Source: Eubacteriales bacterium (GTDB taxonomy: Bacteria; Bacillota; Clostridia; Oscillospirales; CAG-272). Taken from it: a DNA stretch of 64,000 nucleotides. Positions 45,316-60,713 of the stretch are shown here, one piece after another. The notes beneath the pieces were generated by a model. That model did no database searches. It was not told where the DNA came from and saw only the letters and a list, made by a program, of their open reading frames with translations. A program made the position numbers and the translations under genes. The first letter of the stretch is position 1. Each line of letters opens with the position of its first letter. The DNA is taken from positions 146,000 through 209,999 of the forward strand of contig JAZLLY010000016.1 in NCBI GenBank assembly GCA_045598385.1, written 5' to 3'.

Positions 45316-45810
45316 TTATGCTTTTTCTCCGAGTTTTCCCACGGTCTTCATGCCGTCGAATCCCCATTGCCGCAAGACTTCGTAAGCCGCGACGGCGACC
45401 GCGTTTGAAAGATTCAGACAGCGGCGATCCTTTAGCATCGGAATGCGGACGGTCTTTTCCTTTTCTCTTTCGAGAAGATCGTCGGGAAGACCTACCGATT
45501 CTCTGCCGAAACAAAGAAATACGTTTTCGGGATAGGAAATATCGGTATAATTTCCGACGCCTTTGGCGGAAAAATAATAGATGTCCGCCGACGGATTTTT
45601 TGCCTTGAAATCTTCATAATCGTCGTAATAGGTGACATCGAGCGTATCCCAATAATCCAGTCCGGCGCGTTTGAGCGTTCTGTCGGTTATCTCAAATCCG
45701 ATCGGGCGGATGATGTGGAGCGCCGCGCCCGTCACGGAACAGGTCCTCGAAATATTGCCGGTATTCTGCGGGATCTCCGGAGCGTAAAGCACGATATTCA
45801 GTTTTTTCAT
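45316..45810 (-). CDS. trmL: tRNA (cytidine/uridine-34 2'-O)-methyltransferase TrmL
   Basis: From the ATG at 45810 the protein reads [39 protein letters not shown]...RAGLDYW...[11 protein letters not shown]...[15 protein letters not shown], the SpoU/TrmL signature. Confidence 0.9.
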
Positions 45811-45855
45811 CTTTACTATGCCCTCTTTTTCGGAAAATATCAACGTACTCCCCTT

Positions 45856-45883
45856 ATTTTACCGTTTTGCCGGAAAAAGTCAA
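45856..45883 (-). promoter_or_regulatory. Candidate sigma-A promoter of trmL / ATP-grasp / MurE-like operon
   Basis: The minus strand reads TTGACT (45883..45878), a 16-nt spacer, then TAAAAT (45861..45856). Confidence 0.5.
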
Positions 45884-45945
45884 GGGCAAAACCTTTTCAT
45901 TCCGTCCTTAATTTACAATTTTTTCTTTTCTTTTACGAAATTATA

Positions 45946-45954
45946 TGTTATAAT
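45946..45954 (+). promoter_or_regulatory. Extended -10 element upstream of secA
   Basis: TGTTATAAT lies 28 nt upstream of the secA ATG. No good -35 is present at 16-18 nt. Confidence 0.35.
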
Positions 45955-45981
45955 GGGTATAACGTTATTTGCGGAGGCATT

Positions 45982-48723
45982 ATGAAACTCTTCAGAACAT
46001 ACAGCGAAAAACAGGTCGGAAAACTGATGCCGACCGTCCGTGCGATCGAAGCGCTCGCCGAAAAGTTCCGTGTGATGACGGACGCCGAGCTGCGGCAATA
46101 TACCGACAAGCTCAAAGCGGATCTTGCCGCCGGAAAAACGACCGACGAGATTCTTCCCGAAGCGTTTGCGCTCGTGCGAGAAGCCGACGAAAGAGTGCTC
46201 GGAAAACGGCCTTTCACCGTTCAGCTGATCGGCGGTATCCTTCTCCATCAGGGGCGGATCGCCGAAATGAAGACGGGTGAAGGAAAGACCCTCGTCGCCA
46301 CCCTGCCCGCTTATCTGAACGCGTTGACCGGTGAGGGCGTCCATATCGTCACCGTCAACGATTATCTCGCCAAGCGCGACAGCGAAGAAATGGGAAAAGT
46401 GTACGCTTTTCTCGGTCTTTCGACCGGTCTCATCGTTCACGGCGGCTCACAGTCCGAAAAGAAGACGGCATACGCCGCCGATATCACGTACGGAACGAAC
46501 AACGAGTTCGGCTTCGATTATCTGCGTGACAACATGGTCGTTTATAAGGAACGAATGGTACAGAGAGGACACGCCTTTGCCATCGTGGACGAGGTGGACT
46601 CCATCCTCATCGACGAAGCAAGAACGCCTCTCATCATCTCCGGTATGGGACAGGCATCGACCGAGCTTTACGACCTGGCAGACCGTTTCATCCGTTCGCT
46701 CTCCTGCCACGTCATCAAGGAATTCGACGTCAAGCAGGACAACGACAGTTATGACGAAGATTATATCGTGGACGAAAAAGCCAGAACCGCCATGCTGACG
46801 GGACACGGTATCGAAAAAGCCGAACGGTTTTTCCGCATCGACAACCTTTCCGATCCCGAAAACAATACGATATACCATCATATCAATATTGCCATCCGGG
46901 CGCACGGCGTCATGAAACGCGACGTCGATTATATCGTCAAGGACGACGCCGTCATCATCGTGGACAGTTTCACAGGCCGTCTCATGCCGGGACGACGCTA
47001 CAACGAAGGACTCCATCAGGCGATCGAAGCCAAAGAAAAAGTCAAGATCCAGAAAGAATCGAGGACGCTCGCCACCGTCACGTTCCAGAATTATTTCCGT
47101 ATGTATAAGAAACTCTCGGGTATGACGGGAACGGCGATGACCGAAGACGACGAGTTCCGCGAGATCTACAACCTCGACGTCGTGGAAGTCCCGACGAACC
47201 GACCGATGATCCGTCTGGATCACAACGACCGCGTCTATTGTACGAGAAAAGCCAAAATCTCGGCGATCATCGAGCAGATCAAAGAATGTCACGAAAAAGG
47301 ACAGCCCGTCCTCGTCGGCACGGTCTCGATCGATAAATCCGAAGAACTGTCCGCTCTCTTGAAACGCGCGGGGATTTCTCACACCGTCCTGAACGCAAAG
47401 CAACACGAAAAAGAAGCGGAAATCGTTGCACAGGCAGGTCATTTCGGCGCCGTCACCATCTCGACCAATATGGCGGGACGCGGAACGGATATCATGCTCG
47501 GCGGAAACCCCGAATACATGGCAAAAGCCGATATGAGAAAAGCCGGCTACGACGACACCGTGATCGCCGCGGCGACAGGATGTGCCGATACTTCCGACGA
47601 GACGATTCTCGAAGCCCGTCGGTTCTTCCGTGAAAAATACGATCTTCATAAAGAAGAGATCGCGCCCGAGGCGGATAAAGTCAGATCCGTCGGCGGTCTT
47701 TTCATCCTCGGAACGGAGCGCCACGAGAGCCGCCGTATCGACAACCAGCTTCGCGGACGAAGCGGCAGACAGGGAGATCCCGGTGAATCCCGTTTTTATC
47801 TCTCTCTTGAAGACGATCTTCTACGTCTTTTCGGTTCCGACCGTCTTTCCCTGCTTGCCTCGAGACTCCGTCTCGATGAAAACACCCCGATCGATGCCAA
47901 ACTGCTCTCCAACTCTATCGAATCCGCTCAACGCCGCATCGAATCCATGAACTTCGCCCGCAGAAAAAGCGTCCTTTCCTACGACGACGTCATGAATATG
48001 CAAAGAAGTATCATCTACTCGCAAAGGCAGGATATCCTGCGTCTGCCGGATATCAGCGATAAGATCGAAAACATGATCTCGGACGCGGTGCTCGCCGCCT
48101 TTGACGAATGTTTTCCGGACGGGGATCGCTCCTCCTGGAACTTTGACGAATTCAAAAATCACTTTTTCGGTTGTATTCCCGACGAATCGGGGCATCATGA
48201 TACCGAGGAAGAACTCCGCGCGATCGACAGAGAGACGTTTTATAAGGATACTCTGGCGGCGGCGCTCGCCGTCTATCACGGGAAAGACGAACTTTTCGCA
48301 AAAGTGCCGGGGATGCAGCCCGACGCCATGCGCGAGATCGAAAAAGTCATCCTCCTGCAAAACATTGATGAAAAATGGATGGAACACCTCGACGATATGG
48401 ACGACCTGCGCGAATATATCGGTCTGAACTCTTATGCCCAGCGCGATCCCATGGCGATGTACCGCATTGAGGGCGGTGAAATGTTCGACGCCATGATCGA
48501 CGAGATCCGCAGCGAAACGGTCAGAAAGATCCTCACCGTCGTTCCGAAAGTTCAGCCCGTCGAACGCGTACAGGTCGCAAAACCCCTTTCGACCGCCGCG
48601 CCGGACGGCAACGTGCCGAAGAGAAAACCCGCGGCTGTCAAAAAAGTCGGCAGAAACGATCCCTGCCCATGCGGAAGCGGAAAAAAATACAAAAAGTGTT
48701 GCGGTGCGAACGCGCAGGAATAA
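45982..48723 (+). CDS. secA: Preprotein translocase ATPase SecA
   Basis: From the ATG at 45982 (RBS GGAGG) the protein reads [15 protein letters not shown]. It continues with [14 protein letters not shown] (Walker A), [28 protein letters not shown] and the C-terminal zinc motif [14 protein letters not shown]. The track ORF start at 45715 lies inside the divergent trmL gene. Confidence 0.97.
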
Positions 48724-48752: not shown

Positions 48753-50153
48753 GTGACGGATGCCAAAAAACAAAAGATCGGCTTTTCTTCGGGACTTCTC
48801 GTCCTGTGTCTTTTCATTCTTTGTCAGCCGAACGTCAATATTCTCGATATTTTCCCGGACTTCATCGCGTATTTCATTCTCGCGGGGATGATGGGAAGTG
48901 CCGCCGCTTTCGTCCCTTATATGGACGAAGCGAGATCGACTTTTTATAAGCTCGCTCTTTTCGATATTTTCCGGTTCTTCTGTCAGTTTCTCATTTTCGC
49001 TTCGGCGAACAACGATACGCGGAACGACACGATGGCGCTTTTCTCCCTTTCCTTTTCCGTCGTGGGGTATATCTTGCTCTTCAAAGCCATCCGCGACACG
49101 TTCTCCGCACTTTTTTATCTCGGTGAGCGTTCCGCCTGTGCCTCCCTCATCCGTCCTTTCCGGGTGCTCGGCGCGGAGGTGAGACCGGAGCATTTAGAGT
49201 TTTGTCTTCTCGGATTTTTCGGACTGAAAGCGCTTCTCTCGATGCTCCCCGATTTTATCCGTCTGTTCAGCAAAAACAGCACGTTTCTTCTCTATCGCAA
49301 CAGCGTTTTTGCCTGCGTGATCCTCGGCTTTATCTCTGCCGCGATCATTCTCGTTCTCGCCTGCTGTTATATTCACAGCGTCCGCTCGGAGGCCCGCTTC
49401 CGTGAAAGTCTCTCGACTTTGTCCCTGGCAAACGCCGCGCCGGCGCAGGAACACAATCAAAGACAGATCCTCTCCACCGCTTTTCTCTTTATGTTCGCAT
49501 CTACGATCTTTACGTTTTTTCTGCCGATGGACACTTTCGGCTACGCGGATCTCTTCCCGGGATTTCTTTTTCCCGTATTTTTCCTGATAGGGCTTGGGCG
49601 TCTGCGGTCGCTTTATCCGATCCGGAAATCGTTGTTCCGCGTCGGTCTTTCCCTCTCCGTTGTCTCTTTCGCCTCCTTCGTTCTGCGGCCGGTGTTTTTC
49701 TATGATTACGATCTGTCGGATATCACAAAGATCGGCACGGCAAAATCCCTTTACGCGGTTTACGAAGGTGTTGCGATCGCGGAATGTATCCTGACGGCGG
49801 CTTTCCTGCTTTTGCTCCGCAGGTTTTTCGATAACCTGATTGAAAACCGCACCGGTGTCCCCGTGACCGCGAAGGATTATCGGGAAACCGACCGCGATTA
49901 TCACCGAAGTATCAAAAAACTCAACCGTGCCGCTACCGTCTTCGGTATCATAACGCTCCTCGCCCGTACGGCGAAGATCCTCACGGACAGTCACTCGCAA
50001 ACGTCTGCAATCCTCCGTGATTCCGTCATCGTAGGTTCCGTCACGATGAGTGCGTTCCCCTGGCTCGGTATGGTCGTGAACGTGACCGCCGTCCTCTATG
50101 CCGTCCTTTTTTACTACTTCTCGTCCACACTCAAAGACGAATGGAACGTGTAA
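48753..50153 (+). CDS. Hypothetical polytopic membrane protein (466 aa)
   Basis: GTG start 30 nt after secA, preceded by AAGAAGGTGAAAAC. At least 10 hydrophobic segments are visible by eye. I found no recognisable catalytic or transport motif. Confidence 0.6.
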   Translation: MTDAKKQKIGFSSGLLVLCLFILCQPNVNILDIFPDFIAYFILAGMMGSAAAFVPYMDEARSTFYKLALFDIFRFFCQFLIFASANNDTRNDTMALFSLSFSVVGYILLFKAIRDTFSALFYLGERSACASLIRPFRVLGAEVRPEHLEFCLLGFFGLKALLSMLPDFIRLFSKNSTFLLYRNSVFACVILGFISAAIILVLACCYIHSVRSEARFRESLSTLSLANAAPAQEHNQRQILSTAFLFMFASTIFTFFLPMDTFGYADLFPGFLFPVFFLIGLGRLRSLYPIRKSLFRVGLSLSVVSFASFVLRPVFFYDYDLSDITKIGTAKSLYAVYEGVAIAECILTAAFLLLLRRFFDNLIENRTGVPVTAKDYRETDRDYHRSIKKLNRAATVFGIITLLARTAKILTDSHSQTSAILRDSVIVGSVTMSAFPWLGMVVNVTAVLYAVLFYYFSSTLKDEWNV

Positions 50154-50182: not shown

Positions 50183-50221
50183 AGCACCCCGAAAGCGTTT
50201 GGCTTTTGGGGTGCTTCTTTT
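50183..50221. terminator. Terminator between convergent genes (membrane protein + / rlmI -)
   Basis: AGCACCCC-N17-GGGGTGCT (8-bp stem) followed by TCTTTT. Confidence 0.6.
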
Positions 50222-51441
50222 CACACGATCTGGAAAATATAGAATTTGAGATAAAAAGTCTCGGGGACGTTCCAGAGGATCGGATGATCCGGCGCCTGCG
50301 TACGGACTTCGATCTGCCGCAGAGAAACGCCTGCGTCCTCTGCCGCGGCGTGAAGCATCTGCTTGAAATACGTATCCTGCATGAAATGCGAGCAGGAACA
50401 GGTGGCAAGATAGCCGCCGCGCGGGAGTATCTGCATGGCTTTCAGATTGATCTCTTTATAACCTCGGATGGCGTTTTTGAGAGTATCCCGGCTTTTGGTA
50501 AAGGCGGGAGGATCGAGGATAATGAGATCAAACGGCTGCGTTTTGCTTTCTTTGAGCGCCGTCAGATAATCGAAAACGTCAGCCCTCAGATATTCAATCT
50601 TACCGCCAAGGCCGTTTTCTTCCGCGTTTTTTCTCGCCATCGCGAGGGCATCCTCCGAAATATCGAGAGAAAGGACCGACGAAGCCCCGCCGCGCGCGGC
50701 GTTGAGTCCGAATGAACCCGTGTGCGTGAAGCAATCAAGCACGCGCTTCCCTTTCGCGATCTTCGCGACCGCCGCCCTGTTGTATTTCTGGTCAAGGAAA
50801 AAGCCGGTTTTCTGACCGTTTATATAGTCCACGGTGTATATGACACCGTTTTCCTCGATTTTTGTCAAGCCGTCGAGATCCGTCGAAAGTCCGTCAAGAG
50901 GGTAAAATCCCTTATAGACTTCCATCCCTTCAAGTTTTCGGATCTCGCTTTCGTTGCGCTCGTAGATCGCCTTTACAATCACACCGACCTCCGCCAAAGC
51001 GGAGACGAGCAGGCGGTAAAGCATATCCTTTCGCTTTTCAATGCCGAGGGAGAGGACTTCCGTCACGAGAATATCGCCGAACTTATCGACGGTAAAGCCC
51101 GGAAAATAATCCGCCTCCCCGAATATCAGACGACAGGCGCAAAAATCGTCTCCCATGACAGTCAGACGATAACGGACGGCGTGACTGATCCGTCGGGCGA
51201 AAAACGCTTCATCGAACAGATCGTTGGCGTTTTTCGAGATCACACGGACACGGATTTTGGAGCAGCCGTTGACGAATCCCGTGCCGAGATATTTGTCTTT
51301 TTCCGAATAAACGTGGACAAGATCGCCGTTTTCATAAGGACGGTCCGCCGCGAGGACTTCCTCGCCGAACACCCACGGATGGCCGCCGCGCAAGGATTTT
51401 TCGGCTTTTTGTGTAACGCGGAGTTTAGGAAAATCTTTCAT
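50221..51441 (-). CDS. Class I SAM-dependent 23S rRNA m5C methyltransferase (RlmI family, PUA domain)
   Basis: N-terminal LRGGHPWVFGEEV (PUA-like), RVLDCFTHTGSFGLNAA (SAM motif I) and IILDPPAF (motif IV). Confidence 0.85.
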   Translation of the reverse strand: MKDFPKLRVTQKAEKSLRGGHPWVFGEEVLAADRPYENGDLVHVYSEKDKYLGTGFVNGCSKIRVRVISKNANDLFDEAFFARRISHAVRYRLTVMGDDFCACRLIFGEADYFPGFTVDKFGDILVTEVLSLGIEKRKDMLYRLLVSALAEVGVIVKAIYERNESEIRKLEGMEVYKGFYPLDGLSTDLDGLTKIEENGVIYTVDYINGQKTGFFLDQKYNRAAVAKIAKGKRVLDCFTHTGSFGLNAARGGASSVLSLDISEDALAMARKNAEENGLGGKIEYLRADVFDYLTALKESKTQPFDLIILDPPAFTKSRDTLKNAIRGYKEINLKAMQILPRGGYLATCSCSHFMQDTYFKQMLHAAAEDAGVSLRQIEVRTQAPDHPILWNVPETFYLKFYIFQIV

Positions 51442-52094
51442 TTTTGATACGACTCCATTGTGAATAACGAGAAAGGCAAAGCGGAAAGATCGGGATAAGA
51501 AAAAACGCGGATCGTCTCTTTGTGATAATCAAAAGAAAGAGAGCAAGCGTAAAGGCCGAGCGGCAGATGCGATCTTCGGCTGCCGTATTTTCCATCCCCC
51601 AAAAGCGCCATGCCGCGAGAAGCGAGCTGACAGCGGATCTGATGAAATCTGCCGGTCTTGAGTGATACGGAAAGCAAAAAGACGGGAATCCCGTCATAAT
51701 CTGCCGTGTCAAGCCGGCGATACGAAAGTTCCGCGTATTTGGCGTCTTTTTCTTCACTTCCGCAGACAGAAGAACGGTTTTTCTCTTTTTTCAGATAGTC
51801 AACGAGGGTTTCTTCCTCTTTCGGCGAACCCTCGGCAACGGCATAATAGCGCTTTTCGATTTTGCCGCTTCCCGCCATGGCGGAAAGGATCGCCGCCGCC
51901 TTTTTGTTTTTGGCAAAAAGCAAAAGACCGCCGACCGGGAGATCGAGCCGATGGATGAGAAAAAGATCATACCCGGTCTGTGCCGAAAGAAGCGACAGCA
52001 TATCGTGCTTTTCCGTCCGATCCTTTTCGACCGACACAAACGGCGGTTTTTCGGCGATCAGAAGATCGCGGTTCTCCCATACGATTCTGATCAT
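51438..52094 (-). CDS. RluA-family pseudouridine synthase (no S4 domain)
   Basis: LLIAEKPPFVSV, IHRLDLPVGGLLLFAKNK (catalytic Asp motif) and TGRFHQIRCQLA (the HQIR motif). It has ATGA overlaps with both neighbours. Confidence 0.85.
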   Translation of the reverse strand: MIRIVWENRDLLIAEKPPFVSVEKDRTEKHDMLSLLSAQTGYDLFLIHRLDLPVGGLLLFAKNKKAAAILSAMAGSGKIEKRYYAVAEGSPKEEETLVDYLKKEKNRSSVCGSEEKDAKYAELSYRRLDTADYDGIPVFLLSVSLKTGRFHQIRCQLASRGMALLGDGKYGSRRSHLPLGLYACSLSFDYHKETIRVFSYPDLSALPFSLFTMESYQK

Positions 52095-52687
52095 CTCGTT
52101 CTTCTCTTCATGGTCAGAAGTTTATAGACGACAGGGGAAAGAACGATGGAAACCAAAAGTTCAAAAAGGAAATTGCCCCCCACGAGAACGAGGACGATAT
52201 ATTTTCCGACGGGCGTGCCCTGCGCCCATTCGTTGATCTGCCCCATGAAAAATGCAAAGCATCCGAGAAGAAAGATACCGGTATTGACGATCGGAAAAAC
52301 GAGAGAGGCGCAAACCGAGGCAAAATAACTGTTTTTGTTACGGAGCGCACGGAATACGACGCCCGAAAGGTATCCGGCGACGGCACCCTTGAGAAGTACC
52401 GTGACGATCGTACCGAGAATATGGATCTGGAGAAAAGCGGCGGCGTCCCCGGTCACAAAAACCGCGACGCCGAAGACCGTGCCGAGGATCATCCCGGCGG
52501 CGGGTCCGAGAAGACAAGCGCCGAGCACAACGGGAACGGAAACCAGACTGACGGAAAAAGGTCCGAATTTGATAAAAGCACCGAGCATCTGGAATACAAA
52601 AACCAGACTGCACAGAACGGCAAGGTACGTCAGATGCCGGATCGCCTGTTTTTGCGACGTTTTTTCTTTGGTCAAGACCTGCTTCAT
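52091..52687 (-). CDS. ECF transporter S (substrate-capture) component, substrate unknown
   Basis: 198 aa with 6 hydrophobic helices. The pattern VPVVLGACLLGPAAGMILG is typical of ECF S components. No ECF A/T genes are in the window. Confidence 0.65.
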   Translation of the reverse strand: MKQVLTKEKTSQKQAIRHLTYLAVLCSLVFVFQMLGAFIKFGPFSVSLVSVPVVLGACLLGPAAGMILGTVFGVAVFVTGDAAAFLQIHILGTIVTVLLKGAVAGYLSGVVFRALRNKNSYFASVCASLVFPIVNTGIFLLGCFAFFMGQINEWAQGTPVGKYIVLVLVGGNFLFELLVSIVLSPVVYKLLTMKRRTR

Positions 52688-52772: not shown

Positions 52773-55700
52773 TTATTGTGCGGAAAACTTTTTGGAAACG
52801 GTCGTGACGCGGACCGCGATCCCGCCGGTCAGGGCGATCATTTTTACCGCCTGGAGACTGAAATCGTCGGCATAGACGTAAAGCTGTTTTCCGATGGTAC
52901 CGCGCGCCAATATTTTAACGTAGCCGCAGTCGTAAGGCAAAAGCCCTTTTGCTTTCAGAACGTTGATATCCACGCGGCTTCCGTTCTCGAAATGCGCGTT
53001 GACGGTATCGAGATTCAGAATACATTTTCTCTTGCCGAACGTGACGATTTTTTCTTTTTTGCGATTCAGAAGATGGCGGGCAAAACCGTCGCTGATCAGT
53101 TCGTCGGCGTGTTCTTTATCGACGCTCGCCAGGATCTCTTTCACGATCTCTTCGAGGCGGAGAGACGGCAATCTCACAGTGCCCGGCACAACGGCGGCAG
53201 AATACCGTTTACCCGTCACTTTTTGACTATTCCCGAAAGTGGCGGGGAGTTCTGCGGGAAAACCGTCCGGCGTCGGAGTGACGGCGTTATTTCCGTTCTT
53301 TTTCCGGTATAATATGCAAACCGCGGAAAGGACACTCAAGATCCCGAAAACGGTCAGAAGTGCCGTGCGCTTTCTCTTTCCGGCGGCGGAAAGCGCGGAA
53401 GTTTCTATGATCCTGCCGTCTATCACCTCAATTTCATAATCGGGATTATGCCCAATCGCCGTGACGGTTTCGCCGTACACGAAAGCAAGAGAAAGCGTAT
53501 CGCCGTCGGCGAGCGTCCCCGAGACGAGCTCAAAGTCCGTTTCGCCGTAAACGCCGTCCCGATACAGAAAAACGTCGGCGATCTTCACGGTGAGTTTGCG
53601 CGGCGTCACGCGGAATGTCGCCGTCACCGTCGGGTCGTCGGTGCCCTCAAAAGCGTAATTATCCGCGTCTTTGAGGCGCAATGTCAAAGCGTACTCACCC
53701 GCAGGAACCGCAAAAATCTCTCCGACGATCTCGTAAGGTTCGTCTCCTGCGACTTCTGCGCTTTTGGTTTCTCCGGAATATTCAGCGCTGAATTCCGGCA
53801 GGGCGATCACCGTTTTTTTCACCGCGATCGGCGCTTCGCAGGAAAGCCCTCCGAACGTAAACCCGACGGTACGATCGAACACGGTGAGATATTCGGCGTT
53901 TTCATAGTTTACCGATACTTCGGAAAGCGAAAGAATGCGGTCTTTTCCGCTGTTGAAAAGCAATGTCAGGATAACGTCTTCATCAAAAAGCGTTTCCCCG
54001 CCGAAATAATCCTCTTTCGTCAACGTCGCGGACAGCGAGACGGCAACCACCGAAAAGACGGAAAACGGCACGGCTTCGCTTTCGAGGGCTTCATAATTAC
54101 GCAATTCCGCCACCGCCGCTTTTGCGTAATACTGCCCCGCCGTCAGTTCCGTGACCGCAGAGAGGCAGGCGGCGTCGGTGTAATAGGTGACGGTCATTTC
54201 CCCTTTTTTCGGGATTCCCCCGATCACAGGTTCGGAGTCTGCGTAAAAATCGCCGACGGAAAAGGGAACAAGCCAACCGTTTTCCGCTTTCTTTACGGAA
54301 AAACCGATGCGGTCGTTTTCAACGGCGTAATCGGGATCCGCCGACGTCGCGGTCGCGGTATATTCTCCGGCGTAGATCGCGCCCTCGGAAACGACGATCG
54401 GTACGATTCCCGTTGCGCCCGGAACATGACGCTCCCCGTCATAAACGAAAACCGTCTCCCCCCAATCGACCGTGATCGGCAGCGGCAGAACCGTAAAGAA
54501 AACGACCGTCGGTTCGGGAGTTTTATAATTTAAGGATTCGGTATGGAAATATACCGTCAGAGGAACGTTTTCGGCGGCGTGGGTGACGCTGTCTTCAAAG
54601 GCAAGCGAAAGAACGGAACCGTCTGCCCCCGTCGGTAACGTTCCGAGGATCGCGGGAACGTGCGCCTCCCCGTCAAAAACGACCGGTGTCAGATCAAAAG
54701 AAAACGTTGACAGGTCGTAATCGGCAGGGAGGATCTCCCAATTCCACGAAAAAGTGCCGACGGATTCGTAATTTTTTGTATCGAAAGTGAAAGAAGCGGA
54801 AGCGTGATAAACGCCGGCGTCCGTGCCGACGGCGTTTACGTAACCCGCAACGGAAAGACCCGCCGGGACACCTGTAAGAACCGACGATTTCTCCCCGCCG
54901 TCATACGGCACGGCAACACAGGACGGGCAAAGACGCGAAAGGTCGAACGCGGCTTTCAAAACGCTGTAAGTAAACCGCGGATTCGTGAGGACGTAATCTC
55001 CCGTCAAAAGCGTCAGAGTTGCCTCGTATTCTCCGGCGTCGATCCCGCCGCCCGAAAGCCGATACGGCAGTTCTTCCCCGAGCAAGCCGATGCAACGCAC
55101 TTTCGGCAGGTTCACTTCTCCGGAATAGCAAAGCCCGGTCGCGTCCCAATCCGCCTCGACGGGAAGCGGTAAGATCGTCAGAACGGCAGAAAGCGGTTTC
55201 GGCACTTCATAGTTCGGGTCTTCCGTGGAAAAGACCGCGGATATTTCATATGTTCCGGCGTGAATGCCGCCCCCGACGTAGCTGACGCAAAACGGGCAGG
55301 ATTCCGTTCCGATCCCTAAAGATCCGTCGATCGAAAGGGTCTGCCATTCCCCGTTGAATACTGTTTCGGTGTCCGAAAAAGAGATTTCTGCCATATTATA
55401 AACTGCTTTTCTTACAGTAACGGGTATGGCAACAAAGACGGAATCCAGCGTTGCCGTTACGAACGTATCTCCGAAAGCAAAGGCGTCTTTCGTCCGGTAA
55501 CGGAAAGAAAGATCACCGTTATCCACGGGTTTCATACTTCCGTCCGCATAGGTCGCCACGACGGAAAGGCCATCGGGATCGAAGATATCGAAAGCCGCGT
55601 ATTCGGTGCGAAACGGAAGTTCACAGACGCGAAGTCCGACGACGGTGACGGGTGCCAGAACGAACGAAAGCGCCTCACTTTCAAGTCCGTAATAATTGCC

Positions 55701-57443
55701 GTTCTCCGCAACCGCCGCCTTAACGAGATAAACTCCCGCCTCGGTCGGAAACGAATAGCGAAAATCAAAAGAACCCTCCGCGGCAAAAAAGAACCGCACT
55801 TCCCCGTAAGCCGCTTTTGCCTCGATTTCAGGTTCGTTCCCGAGATAGCAAACGCCCGCTTTCAGGGCAACGAGCCATCGGTTTTCCGCTTTTTTGATCT
55901 CATAGTAAAGCGTCGTTTCTTTACTCGTCCCGTCCTCCCATACCGTATTATCCGGATCCGTCAGAGCCAACGTATAAGGGTAAAAACCTGCGTTTATCCC
56001 CGCCATGTTCGAAACGAGGATATAATCCGCCGATGCGGGAAACGACGCTTTGTGTTCCTCTTGGTCGTAAACGTAAGACACCGACGTCGGAAACGCCACG
56101 GTTTTCGGCAATACCGTGACCTCGACCGGCGGGGTCGTTACCGTGACGCTCTCCGCGCCGTAAGTGAACGTTACTTCACAGGTATAGCTGCCGCTGTCCA
56201 TTACGTCCCGGATCCTGATGACGCCCGAAGACGCGGGGATCGTTTCACTGTCTTTTTTCCATACGAACGAAAAAAAGCCATATTCCGAAAGAGGATGCGT
56301 AAGCGATGAAAACGTGAAATCGTGCGTCAGTCCGTCGTATATGAAAGGCGAAGAAAAAATGGAAAAAGTCGGCGCGTCAAGACGATATTTGGCTTCCACG
56401 TCGAGACTCCGCTCTTCGGTCCCGAGAAACGGAACGTTCGTGCCTTTTTGATACCACCCCAAAAAAGTATAACCGGGCTTTTCGGTGTTCGTGCTTATAT
56501 CCGACGGCGAAAAAGAAAAATCAATGAGCATTTCCTTCAGTTCTCCGTCCGCAAAAACACGGAGCGTGTAAGGCAGACAGACGGCAAGAACGTCCGTCTC
56601 GTCCGTATAATCGGATTTTTCAAAATATGACAGAGAAACGGCGACACCACCGGCGTCATAGTAAGAGATTCTCTCCTCCGCTCCCTTTTCGGCGCGGTAT
56701 GCGGCGACGGCAAAATCGCCGACGGCGTAGGTCTTCATACTGAGGATCGAGATCACGCCCGCAAACGGAACGCCGTCTGCACTGAGCAATGGGGGCTCCG
56801 AAAGTTTGATCCCCACGAAAGCGGACGAAACGACGGGCTCGCCCGAGAGGATCACGGTGCCGTAAGAAACGACCGCCGCTTCCGCATCCGAGGTGATCAC
56901 TCCGCCCGTGACCTTTACCGTTCCCTGCGTCGCCACGACGGAAAAATCGGAAGAAGACAGAGAACCCGAAAGGAAGATAAAGGATGACGACGCGGAGAAA
57001 TCCTGTCTCACCGCCGTTTTATCCGCCGTTATCACGCTGTCAAAAACCGTAAGACTCCCGCCTTTAACATGAAAATAACCGTCGGACTGTAAATAAACAT
57101 TTGCATTGTTTAAGGTTAATTCCGTCTCCTCCGCAATATGAAGCGGCGCGGCAAGCGTCCACGATCCAGCGATGGAATACGCCCCGTCCGGAAGAGTCAG
57201 GGCAGAACTCACGCTTACGTCTTCCCCTACGATATGGGAAAAGGGCTTGTCCGAGCAAAAAGAAAACGCTTCCTCAATATCTCCGAAAAAGACTTCTTCC
57301 CCGTTCTGCGTCACGGTGACTGCCGTTTCGCTTCCTTTTATTACATAAACCGCGGACTCGTCCGCTTCGACCGCCGACGCCGTGATCAACAGTACACCGA
57401 TCGCCATCGACAGGGAAAGTCCGATCTTTTTCAGCAGATACAT
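52773..57443 (-). CDS. Giant cell-surface repeat protein (MBG / Ig-like repeats) with C-terminal TM anchor and cytoplasmic uL15-like domain
   Basis: It has a signal peptide (MYLLKKIGLSLSMAIGVLLITASAVEA) followed by approx 1300 aa of repeated beta-type modules. These include YTFLGWY and recurring ..Y(E/K)(V/T)P.P....T(I/V)LPLP(V/I)..DW.....Y(S/D)GE segments. A TM helix (LLTVFGILSVLSAVCILY, nt approx 53312..53375) precedes a 190-aa tail that ends in an L15-like sequence. Confidence 0.85.
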   Translation of the reverse strand: MYLLKKIGLSLSMAIGVLLITASAVEADESAVYVIKGSETAVTVTQNGEEVFFGDIEEAFSFCSDKPFSHIVGEDVSVSSALTLPDGAYSIAGSWTLAAPLHIAEETELTLNNANVYLQSDGYFHVKGGSLTVFDSVITADKTAVRQDFSASSSFIFLSGSLSSSDFSVVATQGTVKVTGGVITSDAEAAVVSYGTVILSGEPVVSSAFVGIKLSEPPLLSADGVPFAGVISILSMKTYAVGDFAVAAYRAEKGAEERISYYDAGGVAVSLSYFEKSDYTDETDVLAVCLPYTLRVFADGELKEMLIDFSFSPSDISTNTEKPGYTFLGWYQKGTNVPFLGTEERSLDVEAKYRLDAPTFSIFSSPFIYDGLTHDFTFSSLTHPLSEYGFFSFVWKKDSETIPASSGVIRIRDVMDSGSYTCEVTFTYGAESVTVTTPPVEVTVLPKTVAFPTSVSYVYDQEEHKASFPASADYILVSNMAGINAGFYPYTLALTDPDNTVWEDGTSKETTLYYEIKKAENRWLVALKAGVCYLGNEPEIEAKAAYGEVRFFFAAEGSFDFRYSFPTEAGVYLVKAAVAENGNYYGLESEALSFVLAPVTVVGLRVCELPFRTEYAAFDIFDPDGLSVVATYADGSMKPVDNGDLSFRYRTKDAFAFGDTFVTATLDSVFVAIPVTVRKAVYNMAEISFSDTETVFNGEWQTLSIDGSLGIGTESCPFCVSYVGGGIHAGTYEISAVFSTEDPNYEVPKPLSAVLTILPLPVEADWDATGLCYSGEVNLPKVRCIGLLGEELPYRLSGGGIDAGEYEATLTLLTGDYVLTNPRFTYSVLKAAFDLSRLCPSCVAVPYDGGEKSSVLTGVPAGLSVAGYVNAVGTDAGVYHASASFTFDTKNYESVGTFSWNWEILPADYDLSTFSFDLTPVVFDGEAHVPAILGTLPTGADGSVLSLAFEDSVTHAAENVPLTVYFHTESLNYKTPEPTVVFFTVLPLPITVDWGETVFVYDGERHVPGATGIVPIVVSEGAIYAGEYTATATSADPDYAVENDRIGFSVKKAENGWLVPFSVGDFYADSEPVIGGIPKKGEMTVTYYTDAACLSAVTELTAGQYYAKAAVAELRNYEALESEAVPFSVFSVVAVSLSATLTKEDYFGGETLFDEDVILTLLFNSGKDRILSLSEVSVNYENAEYLTVFDRTVGFTFGGLSCEAPIAVKKTVIALPEFSAEYSGETKSAEVAGDEPYEIVGEIFAVPAGEYALTLRLKDADNYAFEGTDDPTVTATFRVTPRKLTVKIADVFLYRDGVYGETDFELVSGTLADGDTLSLAFVYGETVTAIGHNPDYEIEVIDGRIIETSALSAAGKRKRTALLTVFGILSVLSAVCILYRKKNGNNAVTPTPDGFPAELPATFGNSQKVTGKRYSAAVVPGTVRLPSLRLEEIVKEILASVDKEHADELISDGFARHLLNRKKEKIVTFGKRKCILNLDTVNAHFENGSRVDINVLKAKGLLPYDCGYVKILARGTIGKQLYVYADDFSLQAVKMIALTGGIAVRVTTVSKKFSAQ

Positions 57444-57472
57444 GGCTCTATCTCCCGCTATGTTTTTGGTAA

Positions 57473-57500
57473 ATTATACCATATTTTAACGGTATTTCAA
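57473..57500 (-). promoter_or_regulatory. Candidate sigma-A promoter of the giant surface-protein gene
   Basis: The minus strand reads TTGAAA (57500..57495), a 16-nt spacer, then TATAAT (57478..57473), preceded by TGG (extended -10). RBS is GGGAG, 8 nt before the ATG. Confidence 0.55.
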
Positions 57501-57534: not shown

Positions 57535-57571
57535 ACAAAAAAGCGGAGAAAACCCGACGGGTTTTCTCCGC
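57535..57571 (-). terminator. Rho-independent terminator after the trx / FTR-like operon
   Basis: The minus strand reads GCGGAGAAAACC-CGTCG-GGTTTTCTCCGC (12-bp stem) followed by TTTTTTGTC. Confidence 0.85.
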
Positions 57572-57611
57572 TGTACAGAAAATGACAATTCCTTTTCTTC
57601 GCAACAGAAAA

Positions 57612-57809
57612 TTACTTTTCTTTATAGTAAAGCATACAATGACAGTATCCCTCAAAGAGAGGATCGTTTATTTGCTCTCTGAACTCTTTACACATACATT
57701 TCGTGTCTTCCGTCATTTCCCGGCGACAGGGACAGTATCCGCCCCTCTCCTTCAGCCCTTCTTTGACGATCCTGACGATCTCTTCATTTTCGTTCAGACG
57801 GATCTTCAT
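57612..57809 (-). CDS. Ferredoxin:thioredoxin reductase catalytic-subunit-like protein (65 aa)
   Basis: GGYCPCRREMTEDTKCMCKEFREQINDPLFEGYCHCMLY carries a CPC...CxC...CHC cysteine pattern like the FTR catalytic chain (4Fe-4S plus redox disulfide). An ATGA overlap links it to the thioredoxin gene. Confidence 0.7.
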   Translation of the reverse strand: MKIRLNENEEIVRIVKEGLKERGGYCPCRREMTEDTKCMCKEFREQINDPLFEGYCHCMLYYKEK

Positions 57810-58117
57810 ACGTTTTCCTTAATCATGCTTTCGAGTTTTTCTTTCGGAACGTAGCCGACCGAAAAATCCGCGAACGTCCCGTTCTTCACAAACGCGATCA
57901 TAGGGATACTGTCAACGTGGAACATCTCGGCGATCTCCCTTTCGTTGTCCACGTTCACTTTGCAGAACTTCACCTGCGGATTCTCTTTCTCAAGCGCCTC
58001 TATCGTCGGGGCGAGCATCCGGCAAGGTCCGCACCAATCGGCGTAAAGATCAATGACGGCGAGCCCCTCGTATTCTTCGATCTCGGCGTTAAAATTATCT
58101 TTGGTCAAAACGGTCAT
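57806..58117 (-). CDS. trxA: Thioredoxin
   Basis: VIDLYADWCGPCRMLAP contains the WCGPC active site. The protein is 103 aa. Confidence 0.95.
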   Translation of the reverse strand: MTVLTKDNFNAEIEEYEGLAVIDLYADWCGPCRMLAPTIEALEKENPQVKFCKVNVDNEREIAEMFHVDSIPMIAFVKNGTFADFSVGYVPKEKLESMIKENV

Positions 58118-58165: not shown

Positions 58166-58475
58166 GAATTATCCCGGATATTTATATTCTTATATTCTTT
58201 TCATTGTTTTTCTTGCACTTTTCCTTGCAAAATATCATAAAATACGAATTATACGAATTATTTTGTCATAAAATGCAAGTCTATCTATTTTTCTTGCAGA
58301 AATAATTCTTTATTCTGACCTGTTTTTTGGAATGATCCGAGAATTAATATCAATATTTGCAATTATTTCAAAAACCGAAAAAAGTAAAGGCGGTTTTCTT
58401 GACGACATTTTCCGGTCCGCTATGTTACAATGGATATCACCACTTTGTAATACCCCAAAAGGAGACACCGTAGCC

Positions 58476-58754
58476 ATGCGCGAGCAAACGTACGTGACCG
58501 TCTTTTCCGAAGAACGCAGAAAAGACGGGTGCTTTTATCAATACCGCCTTTTATCCAGAAAAGACGATAATGAAGAAATATATTCCCTCTTTGCCATTAT
58601 GAAAACCTCAAGCGGTGAAGAAACTTCCGCGATGGCGTACGACGTTTTTCGCTCGCTTGAGCAGGCGCGGGCGTTTTTCCTTCGGATCGTCTCTTTCCTG
58701 GCGACACCGATCAATCTTCCCTACGTCGTGGAGGACGAGATTTCGTCCTTCTGA
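58476..58754 (+). CDS. Hypothetical small protein (92 aa)
   Basis: The ATG at 58476 is preceded by AAAAGGAGACACCGTAGCC. The protein reads MREQTYVTVFSEERRKDGCFYQYRLLSRKDDNEEIYSLFAIMKTSSGEETSAMAYDVFRSLEQARAFFLRIV.... The family was not recognised. The 5' 48 codons of the track ORF have no support. Confidence 0.55.
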   Translation: MREQTYVTVFSEERRKDGCFYQYRLLSRKDDNEEIYSLFAIMKTSSGEETSAMAYDVFRSLEQARAFFLRIVSFLATPINLPYVVEDEISSF

Positions 58755-58898: not shown

Positions 58899-59495
58899 AT
58901 GAAAAACATAGTAATCGGCGCGTTCTCGCTCCTGTTTTCCGCGTTTCTTTTTCTTTTTCTCCCGACGGAGGCGGACGCCGCCATCTACGACGACACCTTA
59001 CGCCTGCACGTACTCGCAAACTCCGATTCCGACTTCGATCAGTCTCTGAAACTCTCGGTGCGTGACTATCTTCTCCTAACATTTGCCGATGCGCTCTGCG
59101 CCGAAGACCTCGAAACGGCGAAAACAAAAGCGCAGGCGCTGATCCCCGAAATGGAAACGGCAGTCGACGAGAAGCTCGCCGAGGCGGGCGTCGATTATCG
59201 CTGCCGTATCACGCTGACGGAAGAAACGTACGACACGCGCACTTATGACGATTTCTCGATGCCGGGCGGGCGTTATCTCTCCTTGCGCGTCATCCTCGGC
59301 GAGGGAGACGGCAAAAACTGGTGGTGCGTCATGTATCCGCCGATGTGTCTCGACCTTTGCTGTGCGGAACCCCTCGAAGAGATCGCCTATACGGAAGAAG
59401 AGATGCGTCTGATCTCGGACGACGACTATGTGATCCGCTTCAAACTTCTCGAGGTCGCCTCCGAGATCGGAGAGAAAATGCGTAAAAAGAATTGA
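58899..59495 (+). CDS. spoIIR: Stage II sporulation protein R
   Basis: A signal/TM segment is followed by LRLHVLANSDSDFDQSLKLSVRDYLL and GDGKNWWCVMYPPMCL, both SpoIIR hallmarks. Confidence 0.92.
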   Translation: MKNIVIGAFSLLFSAFLFLFLPTEADAAIYDDTLRLHVLANSDSDFDQSLKLSVRDYLLLTFADALCAEDLETAKTKAQALIPEMETAVDEKLAEAGVDYRCRITLTEETYDTRTYDDFSMPGGRYLSLRVILGEGDGKNWWCVMYPPMCLDLCCAEPLEEIAYTEEEMRLISDDDYVIRFKLLEVASEIGEKMRKKN

Positions 59496-59520
59496 CTTCC
59501 CGCGCTTTTCATGCTACAAT
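59492..59520 (+). promoter_or_regulatory. Sigma-A promoter of smpB
   Basis: TTGACT (59492..59497), a 17-nt spacer, then TACAAT (59515..59520), preceded by TGC. The -35 overlaps the spoIIR stop codon. Confidence 0.6.
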
Positions 59521-59550
59521 GTCCCTACCGAAAAAGAAAGGTAGCGCGTT

Positions 59551-60033
59551 ATGTCGGAAGAAAAGCACGCGGGAAAAATCATCGCCGAAAACAGAAAAGC
59601 GCGGCACGATTACTTCGTCGAAGAAGTATTCGAGACCGGGATCGCGCTTTACGGGACGGAAGTCAAATCCGTCAGAGCCGGGAACGTCAATCTCAAGGAT
59701 TCGTACTGTTCAATAGTGAACGGCGAGATTTTCGCCCTTAATATTCATATTTCCCCTTACGAGCAGGGAAACATTTTCAACAAAGAACCGCTCCGTGACA
59801 AAAAACTGCTGATGCACAAAAAAGAGATCGTCAAGCTGATCGGTCTGACGACGCGCGAGGGTTATACACTCATCCCGCTTTCCCTCTATTTCAAAGGGAA
59901 GCACGTCAAAGTCGCTCTCGGTCTCTGCCGCGGTAAGAAAGCGTACGATAAGCGCGACAGCATCGCCAAGCGTGACGCCGAAAGACTCATCGACCGTCAC
60001 ATGAAAGAAAGTTCCCACGACAGGTACGACTGA
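59551..60033 (+). CDS. smpB: SsrA-binding protein SmpB
   Basis: [42 protein letters not shown]...LLMHKKEI is the SmpB signature. Confidence 0.96.
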
Positions 60034-60098: not shown

Positions 60099-60713
60099 TC
60101 AAGACTCGTTTTTGGTTTGCAAAAGAGATAATTCATCCTCCGTTAGAGGACGGTAAGTACCCGGAAGAAGATCGGGATCGAGAGTGACGCCGCCGACGGC
60201 GACGCGCTTGAGATACACGATATAACAACCGACGCAGCGGATCATCCGCTTGACCTGGTGCTTCTTTCCCTCGCTGATCGTAAGCGTCGCCGAAAAAACG
60301 GGCGTATGCGGGTGTTTTTTCGCTCTTTTGGCTTCGTCCTCGGTGAGATATTCCGCAACTTCAAAGAGAGTGCAGACCGAAAGTGGCGAAAACTTCGCCG
60401 GTTTCGTCAAAGAACGTCCCATGTCGATCGAAATACCCTCTTCGAGTTTTCGGATCTTTTCATCCGTCATTTCACCGATCGCATAGAAAAAATAGGTTTT
60501 TTCCACGTGATGTTTCGGATGCATCAACGCATCGCACCACTTGCCGTCGTCGGTGAAAAACAAAAGCCCCTCGGTATCCTTATCCAGTCTTCCGACGGGA
60601 AAAAGATCCGCTTTGTCCTCTTCTTTGACATAATCAAAAACGGTTTTGTGCCGCGCGTCGGCTGTCGCGGTGATACAGCCGCGCGGTTTGTGGAACATAA
60701 AATATCTTGCCAT
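60099..60713 (-). CDS. RsuA/RluF-family pseudouridine synthase lacking the S4 domain
   Basis: MFHKPRGCI, VGRLDKDTEGLLFFTDDG (catalytic Asp) and GKKHQVKRM. It starts 3 nt after the cadA stop. Confidence 0.85.
   Translation of the reverse strand: MARYFMFHKPRGCITATADARHKTVFDYVKEEDKADLFPVGRLDKDTEGLLFFTDDGKWCDALMHPKHHVEKTYFFYAIGEMTDEKIRKLEEGISIDMGRSLTKPAKFSPLSVCTLFEVAEYLTEDEAKRAKKHPHTPVFSATLTISEGKKHQVKRMIRCVGCYIVYLKRVAVGGVTLDPDLLPGTYRPLTEDELSLLQTKNES

Follow-up and report, generated by a model that had tools for sequence, protein, structure and literature searches.

One gene in the 64,000-nucleotide stretch of DNA analyzed here (hereafter, the window), at 52773..57443 of the reverse strand, raises an unusual question: why does a giant surface protein appear to end, on the inner side of the membrane, in a domain resembling the ribosomal protein uL15? 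Ribosomal-protein domains are rare in other proteins, and we know of no case in which such a domain serves as the cytoplasmic tail of a surface protein. Full-text literature searches likewise yielded no publication that describes a uL15-like domain in a membrane or surface protein. A first-pass annotation had read the gene product as a signal peptide, approximately 1300 aa of extracellular repeats, one transmembrane (TM) helix, and a cytoplasmic tail, the last ~75 residues of which are similar to the C-terminal half of uL15.

Gene structure and expression signals

In the ORF listing of the window, 52773..57443 (stop codon included) is a single uninterrupted frame with an ATG start, encoding 1,556 aa; all of the features described below lie on the same, reverse strand. 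From the N- to the C-terminus, the protein is composed of a signal peptide, an all-β repeat ectodomain of ~1,330 aa, one TM helix, and a tail of ~178 aa. A ribosome-binding site, GGGAGA (57451..57456), can be read off the sequence 7 nt 5′ of the ATG. It is preceded by a sigma-70-type promoter-like site (57473..57500; TTGAAA-16 nt-TGgTATAAT, with an extended TG), which has 11 of 12 matches and is a consensus match only. These signals agree with the earlier claim that the gene has its own promoter and ribosome-binding site.

The exact sequence of the window protein has no database record, as judged from an exact look-up; protein P0006 is 99% identical to it. Orthologues are colinear with it over the whole length at ~31% identity, and the same colinear architecture was found in ~100 independent assemblies. 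Throughout the clade, the gene is present in one copy and in conserved synteny, and intact ORFs of ~1,100–1,830 aa with the same order of parts occur in ~60 of 80 independent genome loci. These data bear directly on the possibility of an artefact, namely a frameshift, a mis-assembly, or the accidental joining of an adhesin gene with a small uL15-like ORF. One observation could be taken in its favor: in the related metagenome contig L001, an in-frame TAG splits the gene into 1433-aa and 265-aa pieces. However, this stop lies upstream of the TM helix, so that the helix and the tail stay joined, and the tail is the most conserved region of the protein. Moreover, in the window gene, as in most of the 80 related loci, one ORF contains the tail in frame. 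The artefact explanation is thus refuted, and the gene of this spore-forming gut Clostridium encodes a real and conserved membrane protein of type I, with a single pass.

Signal peptide and ectodomain

Residues 1–27 (57363..57443), ending in SAVEA before DES, were called as a Sec-type signal peptide by a rule-based procedure. The N-terminus, MYLLKKIGLSLSMAIGVLLITASAVEA|DES, is signal-peptide-like in its KK, its hydrophobic core, and its V-E-A cleavage motif, and a hydrophobic N-terminus of this kind is present in 99 of 112 relatives. This agrees with the signal peptide of the first-pass annotation.

The next part, aa 28–460 (56064..57362), comprises an N-terminal all-β head and the first Ig-like domains. 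Its AF2 model (pLDDT 89.1) contains β strands only. Foldseek gave no PDB match below E 1e-3 for this model, the best partial matches being the SraP adhesin and generic Ig domains, so that the head has no assigned fold family, and Pfam gave a weak Flg_new match at aa 317–334. The rest of the ectodomain, aa 461–1356 (53376..56063), is an array of divergent Ig-like/MBG-type repeats including one Big_3 domain (aa 614–677; 25.2 bits versus the Pfam cut-off of 21.2). MBG_3, Flg_new, and Ig_2 remain sub-threshold in the window protein; Flg_new and MBG_3 were found in orthologues, as precomputed hits (PF09479 and PF18887). When segments were searched against the masked rest of the protein, those in aa ~445–1140 matched one another with 28–40% identity and E-values down to 5.6e-19. 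Self-BLAST of the whole protein showed no off-diagonal matches, presumably since matches inside the full-length self-match are removed, and a PDB sequence search with the whole ectodomain gave no match at E ≤ 0.1. The internal repeats, the Big_3 domain, and the all-β model together uphold the repeat region noticed at first, now as an ectodomain of ~1,330 aa; within the family, the ectodomain length varies from ~680 to 1,830 aa.

A signal peptide followed by a long all-β Ig-like array is also found in the repeat-rich surface proteins of Firmicutes, such as SLH- and LPXTG-anchored proteins and SraP, the binding region of which provides the best partial fold match to the head. The anchor is, however, different. 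The window protein has no LPXTG motif before its TM helix (PF00746 reaches 12.5 bits versus a cut-off of 20), has 178 aa after the helix, and contains no SLH domain. In this family, the anchor is a TM helix with a cytoplasmic tail of 140–380 aa that includes a highly conserved folded domain. Other C-termini follow weakly related ectodomains: SLH domains in P0288, and a TM helix with a tail of 3 residues in P0286.

Membrane topology

The core of the single TM helix was located by a hydropathy scan at aa 1360–1378 (~53310..53366), in agreement with the helix previously placed at 53312..53375. Among the 112 relatives, the number of K+R in the 15 residues after the helix is 4.7 on average, versus 2.7 before it. 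This positive-inside bias, combined with the cleavable signal peptide and the single TM helix, places the tail inside the cell. Thus, the cytoplasmic side assigned in the first-pass annotation is retained, whereas the length of 190 aa is not: the tail has 178 aa (aa 1379–1556). Its first part, aa 1379–1437 (53133..53309), is a poorly conserved and probably disordered juxtamembrane linker. The conservation of the TM helix and the linker is 0.22–0.30, the linker values being the lowest in the protein, and the pLDDT is 59–71 at the start of the tail model.

The uL15-like domain of the tail

PF00828 (Ribosomal_L27A; the L15/L18e/L27A family) matches aa 1476–1542 (52818..53018) with 36.5 bits versus a gathering cut-off of 21.5 (E 6.6e-9), spanning profile positions 2–70 of 72, and relatives score 43.7–56.4 bits. 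A phmmer search against the PDB matched the tail to residues 72–142 of E. faecalis uL15 (E 5.9e-7 for the single sequence), and the family profile matched uL15 with E 7e-14. The homology covers residues ~72–143 of uL15 (RplO) at 30–38% identity, with the motifs N-x-D, KVL-x-x-G, FS-x-x-A, and GG in common. The fold is also the same. The AF2 model has a pLDDT of 90.7, and the 50 best Foldseek matches in the PDB are all ribosomal uL15, L18e, or eukaryotic uL15 (L27a) chains, with rmsd values of 1.6–3.0 Å over ~75–80 columns (e.g., 7nhn_O: 1.7 Å, 75 columns, 36% identity). The similarity of the last ~75 aa to the C-terminal half of uL15 is thus real in sequence and specific in structure. The tail was seen by these profile methods, unlike by tblastn with a B. 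subtilis uL15 query, which found neither the tail nor a true rplO in the window; rplO therefore lies elsewhere in the genome.

uL15 itself is a small soluble protein, and its gene is located in the spc operon between rpmD and secY. The names given in databases suggest that the tail might be an alternative or spare uL15 that is built into ribosomes: PF00828 is over its threshold, and NCBI and JGI name gene fragments 'uL15 family ribosomal protein', 'ribosomal protein L15', or 'L18E'. Nevertheless, against TIGR01071 (rplO_bact), the full-length protein scores only 25.6 bits and the isolated tail 30.3 bits, versus an equivalog cut-off of 77.95, and the match is restricted to profile positions 69–141 of 144. 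No match covers uL15 residues 1–68, as expected from the earlier remark that the Gly/Arg-rich N-terminal half is missing. The whole rRNA-threading extension (residues 1–70) is absent, and the sequence preceding the uL15-like domain is instead an unrelated linker with three helices and a hairpin. In addition, the domain shares one covalent polypeptide chain with a TM helix and an exported domain of 1,330 aa, the gene lies outside any ribosomal-protein operon, and the 212-aa 'uL15 family ribosomal protein' named by NCBI (P0186) is a partial call, at a contig edge, of a continuous longer ORF. A stoichiometric place of the tail domain in the 50S subunit is implausible because of the covalent membrane tethering, and the idea of a spare uL15 is effectively refuted. 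Since the N-terminal half is absent and the TIGR01071 score is far under the cut-off, the tail domain is, as judged from these matches, a paralogue of the C-terminal globular domain of uL15, not the ribosomal protein. The best-matching uL15 proteins are from Firmicutes, suggesting that the duplication took place in this group.

A conserved module larger than the uL15-like domain

The alignment (A1), the conservation profile, and the AF2 model delimit a conserved cytoplasmic module at aa ~1438–1547 (52803..53132), which is made up of three short helices, a β-hairpin, and then the homologue of the uL15 C-terminal domain. Thus, although the uL15-like ~75 aa of the first-pass annotation were correctly recognized, the conserved unit is larger: a module of ~115 aa with three extra N-terminal helices. 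These helices belong to the same high-confidence AF2 model as the uL15-like domain, and the module is a well-defined, foldable object (pLDDT ~91). Its conservation, 0.64–0.74, is the highest in the protein, versus 0.36–0.62 for the ectodomain. Across the family, it is the module that is constant and most conserved, and not the ectodomain.

The module has invariants of its own. The family-invariant AVKMIxLTGG replaces the A.EAIEAAGG of uL15, and the last helix is more hydrophobic. These hydrophobic invariants, together with the three new helices, may reflect a reshaping of the surface, away from the interface of uL15. The mean charge of the module is +1.6, and that of the uL15 C-domain is 0, so that charge, used as a stand-in for RNA binding, did not discriminate between the two.

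Distribution and other architectures

At least 211 species genomes, all from uncultured gut Clostridia (human and animal), carry the module, and its relatives form 891 clusters at 50% identity (E ≤ 1e-10). It always occupies the C-terminus, preceded by a flexible spacer that is acidic or charged, and is mostly tethered to the membrane. The TM helix remains with the module even in proteins with a reduced or missing ectodomain: mini-proteins with an N-terminal TM helix also end in it, and the gene in the syntenic slot of locus L078 encodes just 221 aa, with a TM helix at the N-terminus and then the module. Two unrelated giant proteins, P0285 and P0287, end in the module as well; their extra cytoplasmic domain of ~150 aa had no Pfam, NCBIfam, PHROG, or PDB match. 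Other relatives have neither a TM helix nor a signal peptide and are therefore cytoplasmic copies, in line with an intracellular tail in the window protein, and their existence as free soluble proteins implies that the module can act untethered. The genes of these soluble relatives are located directly upstream of rpsL-rpsG-fusA-tuf. The distance to the preceding M32 peptidase gene is 12–22 nt and that to rpsL is >200 nt, so that they are probably not part of the rpsL transcript.

A recurrently split or separately expressed tail was also considered and was rejected, as P0186 is the partial call mentioned above; genuine mini-proteins such as that of L078 are the exception. A phage origin of the module was likewise rejected: a PHROGs scan of the tail and one mini-protein gave nothing below E 0.2, and no relatives of the module were found among the IMG/VR viral contigs.

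Gene neighbourhood

Upstream of the gene, an intrinsic-terminator-like hairpin (57542..57572; a 14 bp stem and a T-run) closes a thioredoxin/FTR-B-like operon. Downstream, an ECF-transporter S component (ECF_S; 52091..52687) begins 86 nt after the stop codon, with no terminator-like site between them. It is followed by an RluA-family pseudouridine synthase (51438..52094), the start of which overlaps the ECF_S stop, and by an RlmI-like 23S rRNA m5C methyltransferase (PUA and SAM methyltransferase; 50221..51441), which overlaps the RluA stop. The RluA-type synthase is the most constant neighbour of the family: in 75 of 80 loci, it lies on the same strand after the gene (median identity 38.7%), and the interval between it and the gene is without a terminator-like hairpin in 51 of 77 loci and has one in the other 26. 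ECF_S is downstream in 41 of the 84 loci scanned (40 of these are among the 80 genome loci), and the linkage to the RlmI-like methyltransferase was seen in 5 loci, those of close relatives only. The gene had at first been placed between unrelated operons. This is doubtful for the downstream side, considering the constancy of RluA and the 51 loci without a hairpin. Besides RluA and ECF_S, no candidate partner genes are conserved near the gene, nor does the neighbourhood contain any conserved protease, kinase, or regulator. The flanks of the window gene, consisting of the thioredoxin/FTR-B-like genes and ECF_S/RluA/RlmI, contain no other ribosomal-protein genes.

Possible functions of the module

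The explanation that we tentatively favor is that the module is a membrane-tethered docking domain, which would keep an affinity inherited from uL15 and bring a component of the translation machinery to the inner membrane face under a surface fibre. The ectodomain would be an adhesin-like fibre long enough to cross the wall, and the tail would have as its candidate partner a 50S or pre-50S particle, 23S rRNA, or the neighbouring RluA-type pseudouridine synthase, which would act on rRNA or tRNA. The points that link the module to translation are circumstantial: the descent from Firmicutes uL15, the presence of RluA in 75 of 80 loci at an identity of only ~39% and with no hairpin in 51 of 77 loci, the RlmI-like gene, and the soluble relatives beside rpsL. 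The high conservation of the module, its persistence in different architectures, its cytoplasmic side, and its wide spread also speak for this explanation. Against it, the missing rRNA-threading N-terminal half is the one bearing most of the positive charge of uL15 (+13 in B. subtilis), while the module is nearly neutral and has its hydrophobic invariants and new helices. The RluA synteny could also be an inherited gene order in one clade, 26 of 77 loci have a hairpin, and the soluble relatives are probably not transcribed with rpsL. The narrower proposal that the tail still recognizes the large ribosomal subunit, either as a pre-50S particle without uL15 or at a site of the mature 50S, seems rather unlikely to us.

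Nearly as likely as docking is that the uL15 C-domain was reused after duplication as a stable scaffold, with no link to the ribosome. The exapted module, with its new helices, would self-associate or bind another protein, and the surface fibre would in this way be clustered, positioned, or held; the partners might be cytoskeletal, divisome, secretion, or wall-synthesis proteins. The loss of the basic rRNA-binding half, the near-neutrality, the invariant hydrophobic substitutions, and the added helical sub-domain without a uL15 counterpart are all consistent with this, as is the constant C-terminal position behind a flexible acidic or charged spacer, usually with a membrane tether. However, exaptation leaves the conserved RluA neighbour and the soluble relatives beside the rpsL operon unexplained, and RluA and ECF_S are the only conserved candidate partner genes nearby. 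The type I receptor-like layout, the long flexible stretch that joins the TM helix to the module, and the free soluble forms would also fit signalling across the envelope, in which the ectodomain senses attachment or mechanical load, and proteolysis or a conformational change frees or exposes the module to act on a cytoplasmic target, e.g., translation or RNA modification. Such signalling appears improbable, considering that the neighbourhood holds no conserved protease, kinase, or regulator, that no cleavage motif was identified, and that the module is kept in mini-proteins without a sensing ectodomain.

If docking is the correct explanation, the role of the module would be functionally comparable to that of YqjD, ElaB, and YgaM of proteobacteria (the DUF883 family). 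These are membrane-anchored, 50S-binding ribosome-hibernation proteins, and the YqjD-type proteins provide a precedent for 50S subunits tethered to the membrane (bioRxiv 10.1101/2024.08.16.608256). The likeness is in concept only, that of a single-TM protein with a cytoplasmic domain that could tether large subunits. There is no sequence relationship: a Pfam scan of the tail gave PF00828 and a weak PF00746 only. YqjD is small, C-tail-anchored, and without an ectodomain, whereas the TM helix of the window protein comes after a 1,330-aa exported domain and before the cytoplasmic domain; and ribosome binding has been shown for YqjD, whereas it would be a prediction for the module. Another parallel is found in Mrt4 (uL10), Rlp24 (eL24), and Rlp7 (uL30), the ribosomal-protein-like assembly placeholders of eukaryotes. 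They are also paralogues of ribosomal-protein domains, and they act on ribosomal particles although they are absent from the mature ribosome. In contrast to the membrane-tethered module, they are soluble nucleolar proteins with demonstrated pre-ribosome binding. We know of no bacterial or membrane-tethered placeholder of this type.

Binding of the module to ribosomes, to their precursors, or to an enzyme that modifies rRNA would constitute a new link between the cell surface and translation in Gram-positive bacteria and would make the module a bacterial counterpart to the eukaryotic ribosomal-like assembly factors. If, in particular, it recognizes the large subunit, a wall-spanning fibre would be physically coupled to ribosomes or rRNA-modifying enzymes at the membrane. 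Such a system would amount to a Firmicutes form of membrane ribosome tether, of hibernation device, or of device for local translation, derived from a ribosomal-protein paralogue, and the soluble and mini versions would be free or ectodomain-less forms of the same factor. To our knowledge, it would also be the first known bacterial 'ribosomal-like protein' with an extraribosomal, ribosome-directed role of such a kind. If there is no such binding, the module would be a clear case of a ribosomal fold taken over as an interaction domain close to the membrane. The database labels 'ribosomal protein L15/L18E' on fragments of genes of this family are misleading for annotation and marker-gene work.

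Architecture and topology of the giant surface protein

The giant gene (52773..57443, minus strand) is a single ORF that starts with ATG and encodes 1556 aa. The N-terminus of its product (MYLLKKIGLSLSMAIGVLLITASAVEA, followed by DES) shows the n-, h- and c-regions of a Sec signal peptide, and beyond this region the hydropathy scan found one strong hydrophobic segment only (aa 1360–1378), with 178 residues after it. Because a cleavable signal peptide is combined with a single later TM helix, the orientation of the protein is N-out, C-in. Among 112 family members, the mean number of K and R in the 15 residues flanking the TM helix was 4.7 after the helix versus 2.7 before it, and a signal-peptide-like N-terminus was found in 99; the remaining 13 are assumed to be truncated gene calls. 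Some relatives of the C-terminal module are proteins without any signal peptide or TM helix, and those copies must therefore be cytoplasmic. The topology call, which is rule-based, agrees with the cytoplasmic tail predicted in the first-pass annotation.

The ectodomain was also described there as composed of repeats, and this was confirmed: segments within aa ~445–1140 match each other with 28–40% identity (E down to 5.6e-19), and a Big_3 domain was detected above the threshold. Flg_new and MBG_3 are sub-threshold in the window protein, and both are on record for orthologues. The model of aa 27–460 is all-beta (pLDDT 89). The ectodomain falls into a broad class, the repeat-rich surface proteins of Firmicutes; its relatives in that class are anchored by SLH domains or by a TM helix that only three residues follow. 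Assignment of the window protein as an LPXTG protein was rejected. These analyses show a type I membrane protein whose ectodomain is all-beta and adhesin-like and whose cytoplasmic module is folded and strongly constrained.

The tail carries a paralogue of the uL15 C-terminal domain

The end of the tail (aa 1476–1542) matches PF00828 (Ribosomal_L27A, the L15/L18e/L27A family) over 69 of the 72 profile positions, and the score of 36.5 bits (E 6.6e-9) passes the Pfam curated threshold of 21.5 bits; in terms of its domain, the tail belongs to this family. The match to the NCBIfam uL15 equivalog model is confined to positions 69–141 of 144 and scores 25.6–30.3 bits against a cut-off of 77.95. When PDB sequences were searched, the tail alone matched residues 72–142 of E. 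faecalis uL15 (E 5.9e-7), and a profile built from 31 family tails reached E 7e-14. The 41 PDB matches of this profile are uL15 or L18e/eL18 chains, save one entry labelled 'Uncharacterized protein', and none covers uL15 upstream of residue ~69. AlphaFold2 modelling of the last 142 residues with a 52-sequence alignment gave pLDDT 90.7 and pTM 0.78, and a Foldseek search of the PDB with this model gave, among its best 50 matches, nothing but ribosomal chains of uL15, L18e or eukaryotic uL15 (L27a), as exemplified by 7nhn_O (rmsd 1.7 Å over 75 columns, 36% identity). Thus, the alignment to B. subtilis RplO (uL15) given in the first-pass annotation is right in substance, and the annotation was also correct that the Gly/Arg-rich N-terminal half of uL15 is lacking. 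The tail module is derived from a Firmicutes uL15, specifically from its C-terminal domain.

When 46 full-length sequences were aligned, the mean column conservation was 0.36–0.62 for the ectodomain, 0.22–0.30 for the TM helix and linker, and 0.64–0.74 for the last ~115 residues. The conserved unit exceeds the uL15-like part alone: the model shows, alongside the uL15-like domain and with high confidence, three short helices and a hairpin formed by the first third of the module. The consensus is VD.E.AD.LISD.LAK.L...T.G..K.IINVDTLS..F..G.RVDVN.LK.K.L.PYDT.Y.KVLARG.IDKPL.VYANDFSLSAVKMIALTGGEA.KV, and at the position of A.EAIEAAGG in uL15 the family has a nearly invariant AVKMIxLTGG. We infer that the core under selection is the cytoplasmic module next to the membrane, and that the ectodomain is the variable part.

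Family spread and architectures

An exhaustive phmmer search over cluster representatives with the last 132 residues yielded 1,493 matches at E ≤ 1e-3, of which 891 have E ≤ 1e-10. Among the best 150, the majority are 1,500–1,800 aa long and match at the extreme C-terminus. Nearly all full-length members consist of a signal peptide, a ~1,440-aa ectodomain, a TM helix and a 140–380-aa tail, and are colinear with the window protein end to end at ~31% identity; across the loci, the ectodomain ranges from ~680 to 1,830 aa. When each GTDB species was represented by one genome, a scan detected the module in 211 genomes. All are uncultured MAGs; their labels are Clostridia, Eubacteriales, Oscillospiraceae or 'Ruminococcus', save for one Coriobacteriaceae; gut sources were human, deer, goat, sheep and yak. 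Relatives were not found in viral contigs. In one Logan metagenome contig (L001), an in-frame TAG (6775–6777) located before the TM helix splits the orthologue into 1433-aa and 265-aa pieces; a pseudogene in that strain, a sequencing error and read-through are all possible explanations.

The module also forms the C-terminal end of mini-proteins with an N-terminal TM helix. At one locus of a single species (L078, 7686–8363), the syntenic slot (FTR-B-like gene, X, ECF_S, RluA) is filled only by a 221-aa protein consisting of an N-terminal TM helix and the module, which suggests that the whole ectodomain was secondarily lost; similar mini-proteins (P0212, P0213 and P0219) have in common the juxtamembrane motif ER(D/E)RFLRLA. 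Two much larger giant type I proteins encoded outside the window, P0285 and P0287, have unrelated ectodomains and longer tails ending in the module, and their likeness to the window protein is limited to the uL15-like tail. Between their TM helix and module lies an extra conserved cytoplasmic domain of ~150 aa (aa ~2020–2170 and ~1720–1870, respectively; RYKFSFRAKLIQ...LPYQTTEELINEGLVKV), for which no match was found in Pfam, NCBIfam, PHROG or the PDB.

Soluble proteins of 200–237 aa, from sources including NCBI's 'Firmicutes bacterium CAG:313', end in the module as well, after a basic N-terminus (MAKIVLKRKKS..TY) and a variable E/K-rich repeat spacer. In seven loci (L085–L090 and L093; gene at 6001–66xx in each), their genes lie 12–22 nt after an M32 peptidase gene and ~215–260 nt before rpsL-rpsG-fusA-tuf. 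These loci carry three protein variants (P0244, P0270 and P0239) and are taken to be related lineages. The slot is roughly where B. subtilis has the L7Ae-like ybxF.

Gene neighbourhood

The giant gene is preceded by a near-consensus extended −10 promoter-like site and a GGGAGA RBS (consensus matches only). Upstream on the same strand, a thioredoxin gene and a 65-aa Cys-rich gene (57612–58117) form a pair closed by a strong terminator-like hairpin; the latter shows a weak likeness to PF02943, the ferredoxin-thioredoxin reductase catalytic subunit (21.1 bits versus a cut-off of 22). Directly downstream on the minus strand (50221–52687), after an 86-nt gap containing no terminator-like site, are genes for an ECF-transporter S component (ECF_S), an RluA-family pseudouridine synthase and an RlmI-like 23S rRNA m5C methyltransferase, with overlapping start and stop codons. 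Among 80 genome loci (L005–L084), a same-strand RluA-type gene is found downstream in 75 (31–45% identity to the window's copy, median 38.7%), ECF_S in 40, and upstream thioredoxin and the 65-aa gene in 46 and 39 (64–74% identity); the RlmI-like gene comes next in 5 related loci only. In 77 loci, the giant gene is followed by the next gene after a median gap of 91 nt; a crude hairpin-plus-T-run scan detected no terminator in this gap in 51 of them.

A divergent 140-aa ORF upstream (58332–58754, plus strand), with a sub-threshold DUF6514 match, recurs in 45 of the 80 loci. A second RluA-family gene (60099–60713, minus strand; PF00849, 83.9 bits) lies ~8 kb from the first, and a 466-aa multi-pass membrane protein without a Pfam match (48753–50153, plus strand) is encoded convergently to the RlmI-like gene. 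In the stretches 58899–60033 and 45715–48723 (both plus strand), SpoIIR (136 bits) and an SmpB-like ORF (called from the ORF translation alone) adjoin the locus and SecA is ~4 kb off. This marks the organism as a spore-forming Firmicute, and the region as core chromosome and not a mobile element. The window, which also encodes MutS/MutL and a Mur ligase, has neither tRNA genes nor a base composition anomaly.

Possible function of the module

The ectodomain, a head with an Ig-like repeat array, would be long enough to cross the Gram-positive wall and display the head, and the module may act as a docking domain held at the membrane. We tentatively place first the reading that it keeps affinity for a component of the translation apparatus, namely 50S or pre-50S particles, 23S rRNA or the co-encoded RluA-type enzyme. 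Such action would resemble that of YqjD, ElaB and YgaM, membrane-anchored 50S binders (bioRxiv 10.1101/2024.08.16.608256), although these are unrelated, YqjD included. Suggestive genomic links tie the module to rRNA modification and to a ribosomal operon; they could also be inherited gene order. However, the basic rRNA-threading half of uL15 is gone, the module is near-neutral in charge, and new helices and hydrophobic substitutions have changed the surface it presents. Our second choice, likewise possible but short of probable, is that the uL15 fold is merely re-used for protein-protein contact or self-association, positioning or clustering the fibre.

A signalling device is unlikely, considering that no regulator or protease is linked to the gene and that the mini-proteins lack any sensor domain. 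It is very improbable that the giant protein is an alternative ribosomal protein: as a uL15, it failed on equivalog score, N-terminal extension, operon context and the small-soluble-protein test. The chance that the fusion is an artefact is practically negligible, since it recurs in ~100 independent assemblies; together with the single 1556-aa ORF, this dispels the concern, raised at first, that the tail is a frameshifted or separate ORF.

Novelty and annotation

We rate the window protein as a combination of known kinds, a surface repeat protein and a ribosomal-protein paralogue. The full-text literature search found no paper describing a surface protein with a uL15-like tail; the architecture is real, reproducible over hundreds of species and undescribed. 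It would surprise specialists. Fragments of these genes go by 'uL15 family ribosomal protein', 'ribosomal protein L15' or 'L18E' at NCBI and JGI, and such names can mislead when marker genes are counted in MAGs; in one case, the entry so named at NCBI covers just the 3′ part of an ORF that is longer and sits at the edge of its contig.
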